Source: Escherichia phage vB_EcoM_ASO1A. From it: a stretch of DNA of 64,000 nucleotides. The position numbers were made by a program, and so were the translations under genes. Within the stretch, counting starts at the first letter, position 1. Each line of letters starts with the position of its first letter. This document shows positions 28,229-28,985 of this stretch, in pieces. The stretch lies in the sequence record MZ726791.1, one strand, 5' to 3'. Below the pieces are notes generated by a model that had not been told where the DNA came from, searched no databases, and was given only the letters and a program-made list of their open reading frames with translations.

Positions 28229-28405
28229 CCTAATAAGATTTACACCGTCCATGCTTGCTCGCATTTTCGGTTTATCCCTCGTGTATTGTCGTACACTGAT
28301 AAAGCACCTAGTAGGTGTCACGGAGAAGAGATAATATCAAGCTCTCCAAAGGTTCTAGTCACCGGATTAAACAAGACTATGCAAAGACCTATTTAGGTCT
28401 TTTTA
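28229..28405 (+). ncRNA. candidate small RNA or structured spacer ending in terminator-like hairpin
   Basis: About 150 nt without tRNA fold between tRNA-Ser and tRNA-Leu, ending AAGACCTATTTAGGTCTTTTT (hairpin plus T run). Confidence 0.3.
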
Positions 28406-28484
28406 GAGGGCTTCTAAGGTTATTAGTCGCTTGTTGTGGAACCTTGTTGCTCAGGTTCTTAGAAGTTCTCTAAAAAGATTTAAT

Positions 28485-28563
28485 GGGAGATTGACGGCAA
28501 CTTGGTAGACCTATCTCGCTTAGAACGAGATGCTTGAGGGTTCGAATCCCTTGTCTCCTACCA
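28485..28563 (+). tRNA. tRNA with Leu anticodon TAG but short variable arm
   Basis: Acceptor GGGAGAT/GTCTCCT, anticodon stem TCTCG/CGAGA loop CTTAGAA, T-arm GAGGG-TTCGAAT-CCCTT, A73, CCA. Confidence 0.55.
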
Positions 28564-28570
28564 AATTAAT

Positions 28571-28646
28571 GCAGGTGTAGCAAAATGGTTATGCGGCTGA
28601 CTCTTAATCAGTAAGACGATGGGTTCAATTCCCTCCACCTGTACCA
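28571..28646 (+). tRNA. tRNA-Lys (anticodon CTT)
   Basis: Acceptor GCAGGTG/CACCTGT, anticodon stem GCTGA/TCAGT loop CTCTTAA, T-loop TTCAATT, CCA. Confidence 0.6.
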
Positions 28647-28652
28647 GACATT

Positions 28653-28728
28653 GGGGATGTAGTTTACATGGTTAAAACATAAGTTTTGCAAACTTAAGTA
28701 CAGGGTTCAATTCCATGCTTCTCCACCA
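28653..28728 (+). tRNA. tRNA-Ala (anticodon TGC)
   Basis: Acceptor GGGGATG with G3-U70 wobble (Ala identity element), D-stem GTTT/AAAC, anticodon stem TAAGT/ACTTA loop TTTGCAA, CCA. Confidence 0.75.
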
Positions 28729-28734
28729 ATTAGT

Positions 28735-28809
28735 GCATCCATAGTTTAAACGGGAAAATTACAGTCTTCCAAACTGAGGTTGAGGGTTCGATTCCCTCTG
28801 GATGCTCCA
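28735..28809 (+). tRNA. tRNA-Gly (anticodon TCC)
   Basis: Acceptor GCATCCA/TGGATGC, anticodon loop CTTCCAA, T-arm GAGGG-TTCGATT-CCCTC, CCA. Confidence 0.75.
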
Positions 28810-28816
28810 AATTAAT

Positions 28817-28892
28817 GCTCCTATCGTATAATTGGCTATTACGGTTGCCTTGTAAGCAACTTATCAGGGTTCGAATCCTTGTGGGAGCACCA
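28817..28892 (+). tRNA. tRNA-Thr (anticodon TGT)
   Basis: Acceptor GCTCCTA/TGGGAGC, anticodon stem GTTGC/GCAAC loop CTTGTAA, T-arm CAGGG-TTCGAAT-CCTTG, CCA. Confidence 0.8.
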
Positions 28893-28894
28893 AT

Positions 28895-28985
28895 TCAGAG
28901 GTCAAGTGAAAGACCGCTGGTGTCAACTGAAGACCGTAACAAATTCCACGGAGTTGAGTTAGCGGCACAACTTCAGACCTCTTTC
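28895..28985 (+). ncRNA. extended hairpin element inside tRNA cluster
   Basis: AGAGGTC...CTGAAG...CTTCAGACCTCT: outer 7-bp and inner 6-bp inverted repeats enclosing about 60 nt; contains partial spacer motif GAAGACCGTAACAA. Confidence 0.4.

Follow-up and report, generated by a model that had tools for sequence, protein, structure and literature searches.

Two conserved non-tRNA segments in the tRNA gene cluster of Escherichia phage vB_EcoM_ASO1A as candidate small RNAs

The transfer RNA (tRNA) gene cluster of bacteriophage T4 specifies two stable non-tRNA molecules, the species 1 and species 2 RNAs (rnaC and rnaD), the function of which is unknown. They are presumed to be cotranscribed and freed by tRNA-processing enzymes, and are assumed to act in trans. 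In Escherichia coli, a tRNA spacer is the source of the small RNA 3'ETS-leuZ. A further group of small RNAs, the Y RNAs, is bound by Ro60 proteins and includes YrlA and YrlB (PMC4201824) as well as Yrl1 and Yrl2 of Thermus phage phiLo (PMC12135203). Here we describe two segments which interrupt the tRNA cluster of Escherichia phage vB_EcoM_ASO1A and which had been put forward as candidate small RNAs in an earlier note made from the sequence alone. The stretch analysed (64,000 nucleotides (nt), sequence record MZ726791.1) is hereafter called the window. Segment 1 is the gap of 254 nt between tRNA-Ser(UGA) and tRNA-Leu(UAG) (28231-28484), and segment 2 the gap of 95 nt between tRNA-Thr(UGU) and tRNA-Val(UAC) (28893-28987). 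Comparative evidence suggests that both are probably functional non-coding plus-strand RNAs made within a polycistronic tRNA precursor.

The T4 species 1 and 2 RNAs appear to be the closest, comparable precedent. They too are RNAs other than tRNAs whose genes lie among phage tRNA genes of the same strand, and the segments fit this description in position, strand and conservation. However, there is no sequence relationship between the two pairs, since blastn searches seeded with the segments retrieved only Ounavirinae and one phage of the Vequintavirinae; moreover, the T4 molecules were observed as RNA species, whereas the segments are predicted from the genome alone. Segment 1 resembles 3'ETS-leuZ in that it adjoins the 3' end of a tRNA and includes a hairpin with a T-run behind it; it could therefore yield a trailer-derived small RNA. 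It differs in that its T-run comprises 5 nt, of which 3 are paired, is not kept in the divergent contig L144, and is followed by more tRNAs without an intervening promoter. A further difference is that no target complementarity was found for the segments in the window or, for segment 1, in E. coli genomes.

The 5.5 kb around both segments are 100% identical to Escherichia phage vB_EcoM_ASO1B (MZ726792) and 94-98% identical to many Felix O1-like phages (Ounavirinae, Felixounavirus); by these identities the window is assigned to Felixounavirus. ARAGORN located 25 tRNA genes between 26246 and 31397, all on the plus strand and most of them only 1-10 nt apart. Neither gap received a tRNA call from ARAGORN, and neither matched the tRNA model RF00005 at E-values up to 10, even when each was searched alone. 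Nor was a credible Rfam match found in a 7-kb scan or in gap-restricted scans, the sole matches being sub-threshold, plant microRNA-like ones to the long hairpin of segment 1. With nothing above noise at the three scales of the Rfam search, the segments match no known Rfam family, and the view of the earlier note that they are non-tRNA stretches within the cluster is confirmed. Three open reading frames (ORFs) overlie them (28202-28396, 28315-28473 and 28815-28997; 64, 52 and 60 codons, respectively). All three lack a Pfam match and are interrupted by stops or frameshifts in TP1, Sf13, Moogle or SUSP1, which bears out the same note's dismissal of the first and last of them. The segments are thus neither tRNA nor protein-coding.

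In order to compare rates of change along the locus, identity scores were derived from an alignment of the window with Mooglevirus (Sf13 and Moogle) and Suspvirus (SUSP1), that is, across three genera (Table 1). Both segments are conserved at the level of tRNAs and above the flanking genes, while adjacent loops and linkers diverge: the loops flanking the core of segment 1 score 0.17-0.63 as against 0.85-1.00 in the core itself. Scores of 0.17-0.45 in the variable loops imply ample divergence wherever it is tolerated. The comparison indicates that both segments are under purifying selection, which acts on sequence in the loops and on pairing in the stems. Several other non-tRNA stretches are equally conserved (26081-26240, 26901-27060, 27581-27780, 27901-28140 and 31441-31580), and the cluster contains about eight conserved non-tRNA stretches including the two segments; therefore, the latter are a sample of a larger set. 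The proposal that they are small RNAs has accordingly gained from tRNA-level conservation, from compensatory and wobble changes in stems and from the lack of conserved ORFs, but the two segments are only part of what it might have covered.

Far from being confined to one phage, segment 1 is present in 253 phage records and segment 2 in 259 (blastn). Segment 1 was found only in Ounavirinae (Felixounavirus, Mooglevirus and Suspvirus), the sampled members of which carry a gene for a Ro-like protein. Segment 2 is 93-100% identical in 258 records from the same three genera, and outside this subfamily blastn revealed an 81% identical copy in a single phage, TH18 of the Vequintavirinae. That copy lies directly 3' of a homologous tRNA-Gly and 5' of a homologue of the DUF7338 gene (29479-30036 in the window), the latter sharing only 72% DNA identity with its counterpart in the window within the common block. 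Pattern scans of IMG/VR yielded one extra variant of segment 2, the rest being chance matches, and only Felixounavirus-like copies of segment 1; a metagenome pattern scan added five useful variants of segment 2 and one divergent segment 1. No homologue of the Ro-like gene was detected in the whole 133.9-kb genome of TH18 (tblastn, E up to 1), and Mooglevirus has segment 2 and lacks the DUF7338 gene; segment 2 is therefore independent of both genes. Synteny also ruled out segment 2 as a cis-regulatory leader or riboswitch of the DUF7338 gene pair, as it abuts the DUF7338 gene only in TH18-like phages and is separated from it by three tRNAs in the window.

The helices of segment 2 were counted on 18 distinct sequences (alignment A8). 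The fold has a z-score of -2.9, with 3 of 200 shuffled sequences as stable. In its closing stem P1, Vequintavirinae copies exhibit a G-C to U-A exchange, and in L144 the two strands of the stem have shortened in concert. The helix Px changes from G-C to A-U in metagenome contig L141, and L159 shows a G-U intermediate. Py and Py' are mutually exclusive and, judging from the alignment, either may fit the centre of the segment: Py is 100% paired and shows one compensatory exchange (A-U to G-C) between Ounavirinae and Vequintavirinae, while Py' is 98% paired without compensatory change; the minimum-energy fold of the TH18 copy consists of P1 and Py. Within the 27-nt block the only variant is a G-to-A change at 28936 in contig L043. 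Segment 2 had been read in the earlier note as a nested inverted repeat. Both repeats are present, yet the inner pairing of CTGAAG (28927-28932) with CTTCAG (28971-28976) is broken in TH18, L023 and L017, in which the competing helices remain paired; of the pairings considered it has the weakest support. A hammerhead-like reading of CTGAAGA/GAAA was set aside, by eye, on account of unsuitable stem order and spacing.

Segment 1 was compared on 13 distinct versions (alignment A1) and later on 34, including L144. Its extent had been given as 28229-28405 (about 175 nt), which is short of the true gap. Six lineage versions of the variable hairpin form similar folds (-7.3 to -13.1 kcal/mol, z from -1.5 to -2.8). 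In the core, stems Ha, Hb, Hc and Hd* are paired across the 34 versions, with alignment gaps only at the loop-closing pair of Ha in 3 of them; the substitutions in these stems are three G-U changes and one compensatory exchange (U-A to C-G at 28359/28376). A closing stem and an Hd helix predicted by RNAalifold are disrupted by L144 and other variants, and were abandoned in favour of UAGUC/GACUA (Hd*). The hairpin and T-run noticed earlier do exist and correspond to He, an AU-rich stem of 8 base pairs (bp), three of them G-C, with a folding energy of -8.7 kcal/mol (z = -3.4; four variants span -5.9 to -8.7 kcal/mol). Its 3' strand is invariant and changes in the 5' strand are solely G-U-compatible. 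As a terminator, it is at best weak, because three of the five T residues are consumed by the stem (the full stem leaves UU unpaired), the T-run reads TTTGT in L144 and He is not listed by a terminator scan; an alternative partner for the T-run is AAAAA in Hf. The stretch from He to tRNA-Leu yielded no sigma-70-like promoter, so that read-through past He is needed.

Hf, a long hairpin with arms of 26 nt (28393-28418/28458-28483), differs between genera by one compensatory pair and several G-U pairs (RNAalifold). At the same site L144 has unrelated, perfectly complementary arms of 12 nt (GTAGATGGCTAC/GTAGCCATCTAC), and Hf may possibly be a stem for RNase III cleavage or leader processing. As a whole, the 254-nt gap is unusually stable (z = -3.7; none of 200 shuffles as stable). 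Related hairpins (AAGGGYTYT...AGAGWRTCYTT) abut tRNAs at 26925-26960, 27780-27814 and 30283-30313 as well as at 28393-28483; other genera have different hairpins of similar or greater length at such sites, which may be processing sites. Taken together, the search for covariation across related phages uncovered compensatory changes in P1, Px and Py of segment 2 and in the core and Hf of segment 1. On the minus strand the G-U pairs of Hf, He and Py would turn into C-A mismatches, and the structures therefore belong to the plus-strand RNA.

Table 1. Features of the tRNA cluster region, with identity scores across the three genera.
Feature	Coordinates	Strand	Identity score	Remarks
Ro-like gene	24665-26080	+	about 0.5 (5' half)	471 codons; directly upstream of tRNA cluster
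E1	26419-26484	+		stem + UUACAGCAA element
E2	26585-26638	+		stem + UUACAGCAA element
E3	26974-27040	+		stem + UUACAGCAA element
E4	27060-27185	+		stem + UUACAGCAA element, long
E4 V hairpin	27091-27107	+		
E4 T arm	27112-27128	+		
E4 acceptor-like stem	27129-27146	+		7 bp, tetraloop-closed
E4 D arm	27149-27163	+		
tRNAs (cluster)			about 0.8-1.0	
tRNA-Ser(UGA)	28141-28230	+		ARAGORN; upstream limit of segment 1
Trailer TAATAAGATTTA	28231-28242	+		directly after tRNA-Ser; in A1, 11 of 12 positions invariant, the fifth at least 90%
Variable hairpin	28243-28275	+	0.45 (28241-28260)	two-tier; sequence differs per lineage, fold retained
Segment 1 core	28280-28382	+	0.85-1.00 (0.83-1.00 for 28281-28400)	near-invariant, four short hairpins
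Ha	28281-28285/28292-28296	+		core stem
Hb	28305-28309/28313-28317	+		core stem
Hc	28322-28326/28343-28347	+		core stem
Hd* (UAGUC/GACUA)	28356-28360/28375-28379	+		core stem
He	28383-28404	+		AAAGACCT-ATTT-AGGTCTTT (28383-28402) + TT; AU-rich hairpin; folding, alignment
Hf	28393-28483	+	0.17 (loop, 28421-28440)	directly 5' of tRNA-Leu; overlaps He; inverted repeat I1
tRNA-Leu(UAG)	28485-28563	+		ARAGORN; downstream limit of segment 1
tRNA-Thr(UGU)	28817-28892	+		ARAGORN; upstream limit of segment 2
Segment 2 RNA closed by P1	28897-28982	+	0.93-1.00 (segment 2)	A8 alignment
P1 (AGAGGTC/GACCTCT)	28897-28903/28976-28982	+		7 bp; compensatory change
Px (CCGCT/AGCGG)	28914-28918/28961-28965	+		GC helix; compensatory change
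27-nt block GTCAACTGAAGACCGTAACAAATTCCA	28922-28948	+		identical in Ounavirinae and Vequintavirinae copies
Py'	28923-28928/28952-28957	+		alternative to Py; fold fully nested
Pz	28934-28937/28948-28951	+		A8
Py	28951-28956/28968-28973	+		alternative to Py'; makes Px a pseudoknot
tRNA-Val(UAC)	28988-29062	+		ARAGORN; downstream limit of segment 2
CDS265 (coding sequence)	30425-31222		about 0.8	

The reading that we favour supposes that the segments are transcribed together with the tRNAs, presumably from the sigma-70-like promoter at 27587-27615, which corresponds to 'P45' predicted in Felix O1 (PMC3185647). The RNAs would then be released by tRNA-maturing enzymes, with RNase P cutting at the 5' ends of tRNA-Leu and tRNA-Val and with 3'-end trimming after tRNA-Ser and tRNA-Thr; in the case of segment 1, Hf could also be cleaved, possibly by RNase III, or transcription could stop in part at He. 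Segment 2 is expected to give a compact product of about 86-95 nt, the ends of which would be sealed by the 7-bp stem and in which Px would join the 5' region to the loop or the stem of a 3' hairpin, next to a near-invariant 27-nt junction and loop. The product of segment 1 would measure about 150-250 nt and comprise the variable hairpin, the four short hairpins with invariant loops and linkers, He and Hf. Such RNAs might persist because their ends are sealed in helices, and may act in trans by way of a specific partner. Recognition by such a partner, be it protein or RNA, seems likely because loops and junctions are conserved in sequence, while the stems allow structure-preserving change only.

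Several observations weigh against this proposal. The 175-nt stretch originally delimited is not unusually stable on its own (z = -1.5; 18 of 200 shuffles equal it), in contrast to the whole gap, because most of Hf lies beyond its coordinates. For Ounavirinae copies of segment 2 the nested fold, at -30 kcal/mol, is energetically favoured over the pseudoknot, at about -19 kcal/mol; the centre may take either form. Owing to the narrow phylogenetic range, few events underlie the covariation: about three in segment 2 and a single one in the core of segment 1. High conservation is cluster-wide, so that low divergence or recombination could account for some of the identity. A search of the window for paralogues or complementary targets of the segments returned just matches of 11-13 nt, as predicted by chance, and the core of segment 1 has no homologue in 5,426 E. 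coli genomes, so that neither partner nor target was found. A literature search retrieved no paper on non-coding RNAs or transcriptomes of Felix O1-like phages.

The most serious competing explanation, a possible one although clearly less probable than functional RNAs, is that the segments are cis-acting spacers of the tRNA operon without a role of their own: folded insulators against misfolding of the tRNA precursors, with He attenuating or weakly terminating transcription and Hf providing a stem for RNase III or for leader processing. It accounts well for Hf, which belongs to the set of tRNA-adjacent hairpins that keep structure and not sequence, and for the variable hairpin, and it agrees with the read-through past He. 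Yet insulation or processing needs structure only, whereas loops and linkers show essentially no variation over about 100 nt of segment 1 and 27 nt of segment 2, next to genuine structure-only elements, the variable hairpin and Hf, that diverge freely; most tRNAs of the cluster, moreover, do without such spacers. Decay of tRNA genes or of other genes, leaving remnants with no current function, is very improbable. The cluster does harbour aberrant tRNA-like genes (27819-27898 and 28053-28130), but the segments retain no residual similarity to the tRNA model, gap-restricted scans included, and they are conserved like functional tRNAs over three genera and into another subfamily, with substitutions that preserve structure. 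Small proteins encoded by the 64-, 52- or 60-codon ORFs are the least credible option of all: although such ORFs exist and hypothetical proteins are annotated there in some GenBank records, they begin inside tRNA genes and are disrupted in relatives, and the segments are invariant at all three codon positions, which is not coding-like.

An unlikely alternative is that one or both segments are Y-RNA-like partners of the Ro-like protein encoded upstream, as four RNA elements (E1-E4) described below might be. The segments lie in one operon with the Ro-like gene and on its strand, the AGACC/GGTCT stem of E1-E4 recurs in He, P1 has AGA...TCT ends, and segment 2 contains CTGAAGACCGT, similar to CAGAAGACCGT which opens E2 and E4. 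Against this, TH18 retains segment 2 without a Ro-like homologue (an argument which does not cover segment 1), and neither segment has the (U)UWCAGCAA motif of the elements. A covariance model, R1, built from 43 members of the element family and searched with cmsearch over the whole window with filters off and E-values up to 10, matched E1-E3 at 34.9-43.5 bits and E4 partially, and retrieved nothing in 28231-28484 or 28893-28987; the segments are thus separate from the E1-E4 family, despite the AGA...TCT stem ends of He and P1. We therefore rejected a Ro-partner role for segment 2, on the evidence of TH18 and the R1 scan, and regard it as unsupported for segment 1.

The same conclusion emerges from comparison with described Y RNAs. 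YrlA carries a GNCGAAN0-1G motif near the 5' end and T-like, closed acceptor-like and D-like stem-loops (Rfam RF02553; PMC4201824), and its gene lies no more than 4 kb from that of Ro60, with the two on one strand (PMC4201824). The segments lie 2.2 and 2.8 kb downstream of the end of the Ro-like gene (26080) on its strand, and segment 2 is closed by a stem of its two ends. However, neither contains GNCGAAN0-1G or CGAA, the sole non-coding match to the former in the cluster region being at 27109 in E4, and both lack an RF02553 match, a T-loop sequence and tRNA-like T, acceptor and D modules. The comparison suits E1-E4 far better than the segments. With tRNA-like structures and tRNA mimics segment 2 shares a 7-bp terminal stem and, in the pseudoknot model, a 5' strand which pairs with the 3' hairpin loop and the order acceptor, D-like, central hairpin, T-like, acceptor. 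As it has no tRNA covariance match, T-loop sequence or encoded CCA, this likeness would be topological only and dependent on the fold. A speculative and rather improbable extension is that segment 2 is a tRNA-shaped RNA with a 7-bp acceptor-like stem and a 5-bp helix replacing the contact of D-loop and T-loop, processed by tRNA enzymes, acting as a decoy or regulator against host tRNA-directed nucleases or tRNA-handling enzymes and moving between subfamilies with tRNA genes; segment 1 would then be a second, unrelated protein-binding RNA of an RNA-only operon.

The Ro-like protein matches the Pfam families DUF2828 and DUF7788 and PHROG 850 ('RNA-binding protein'), and aligns along its entire length, at 30-34% identity, with mycobacteriophage proteins annotated as 'Ro-like RNA binding protein'. 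A search of PDB with this sequence alone gave no match; a profile of 40 relatives had the Thermus phage Ro60 (9L5Y/9KOP) as its best PDB match, at a marginal E-value of 0.008, so that a Ro60 fold is weakly suggested. Between 26415 and 27188, after the Ro-like gene, lie E1-E4, which open with CAGA-AGACC(AA/GT)-(T/A)T(A/T)CAGCAA and close with (TT/AC)GGTCT-GG. The family is defined by a 7-bp closing stem, (U)UWCAGCAA on its 5' side and a G after its 3' strand, and is not recognised by Rfam 15. The closing stem covaries freely, in an aligned set that was selected for having a stem. In YrlA the domains follow the permuted tRNA-like order V-T-AS-D (PMC4201824), and E4 encloses a permuted tRNA-like domain in this very order. 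Elements of the same type are found beside the Ro-like gene in Klebsiella phage FBKp34, Aeromonas phage LAh_6 and Vibrio phage XZ1, and in 53 of 75 IMG/VR contigs with a 39-47% identical Ro-like relative, in 51 of them within 1 kb. Most of the IMG/VR elements (61/73) are at most 500 nt from the Ro-like gene and only 4 are on the opposite strand; all 122 tRNAs at these loci are on the strand of the gene. The family thus accompanies Ro-like genes in many unrelated phages; its sites outside the window include L032 (6528-6816), L033 (533-585 and 4712-4957) and L066-L140. Short members resemble YrlB, and long ones (E4, L139 5796-5919, L091, L066 and L032) have a permuted tRNA-like domain as in YrlA. 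Other phages with a Ro-like gene also have tRNA genes of 110-128 nt (L032 7003-7113, L082 3597-3711, L033 2494-2610, L090 7324-7446 and L069 3358-3485); that of L032 has roughly 40 extra nt between the D and anticodon arms, consisting of a hairpin and TTACAGCA, i.e. an inserted Ro-like-associated module.

The cluster contains other unusual features. Just after the Ro-like gene there are tandem sigma-70-like promoters (26079-26127, TTGACA-17-TAATAT; 26170-26219, TTGACA-18-TAAAGT) within a 28-nt direct repeat, the first embedded in a 12-bp stem-loop. The region 27620-27815, which follows the promoter at 27587-27615, resembles the mRNA-like domain of transfer-messenger RNA (tmRNA). Its tag frame (27665-27700), GCA AAC GAC AAT GTT TTT CTG GCA GTA GCT TGA TAG, reads ANDNVFLAVA followed by two stops; the E. 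coli SsrA tag is ANDENYALAA. Changes of this frame in relatives are one synonymous, one stop-to-stop and one V-to-A, and a helix after the stops covaries; Rfam tmRNA matches fall below threshold (E = 0.002-0.005), ARAGORN reports no tmRNA and the ends show no evident tRNA-like domain. Two tRNA-like genes received no ARAGORN call. The one at 27819-27898 (31.7 bits with the Rfam tRNA model) has no D arm, a long variable arm and the anticodon UCU, and if it starts at C27819, its acceptor shows the alanine identity pattern G3-U70 and A73; relatives have a normal tRNA-Arg(TCT). In that at 28053-28130 the anticodon is CCA (Trp), the acceptor stem (ATGGGAC/GTCCCAT) has 7 bp and the D region is aberrant; its SUSP1 counterpart is a normal-looking tRNA-Trp. 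The gap between these genes includes an invariant stretch (27941-27990) with a strong Shine-Dalgarno-like AAGGAGGT and, 12 nt on, ATG TTT TCC AGA ACA TGT AAA TAA (MFSRTCK), overlapping a palindrome CATGTT..AACATG. Finally, tRNA-Ser(UGA) ends in GCCT rather than GCCA (28227-28232 region), so that the terminal A of its CCA is not encoded; the other tRNAs whose 3' ends appear in a direct-repeat listing have CCA encoded. The Ro-like-associated RNA family and the tmRNA-like tag are probably more valuable leads than the two segments.

Phage tRNA clusters are usually annotated as tRNAs separated by meaningless spacers or spurious ORFs. At least two spacers of the present cluster are under selection as strong as that on tRNAs and match no curated RNA family, and the ORF annotations over these regions in many GenBank records should go. 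We regard the segments as new, narrowly distributed members of a recognised but little understood group, the non-tRNA RNAs that lie within phage tRNA clusters; should they prove to be stable RNAs, two uncharacterised phage RNAs would join a class unexplained since T4 species 1 and 2. They reside in what appears to be an RNA-centred module, with a Ro-like protein, Y-like RNAs, a tmRNA-like tag sequence and odd tRNAs, which may serve tRNA or RNA quality control or counter-defence.

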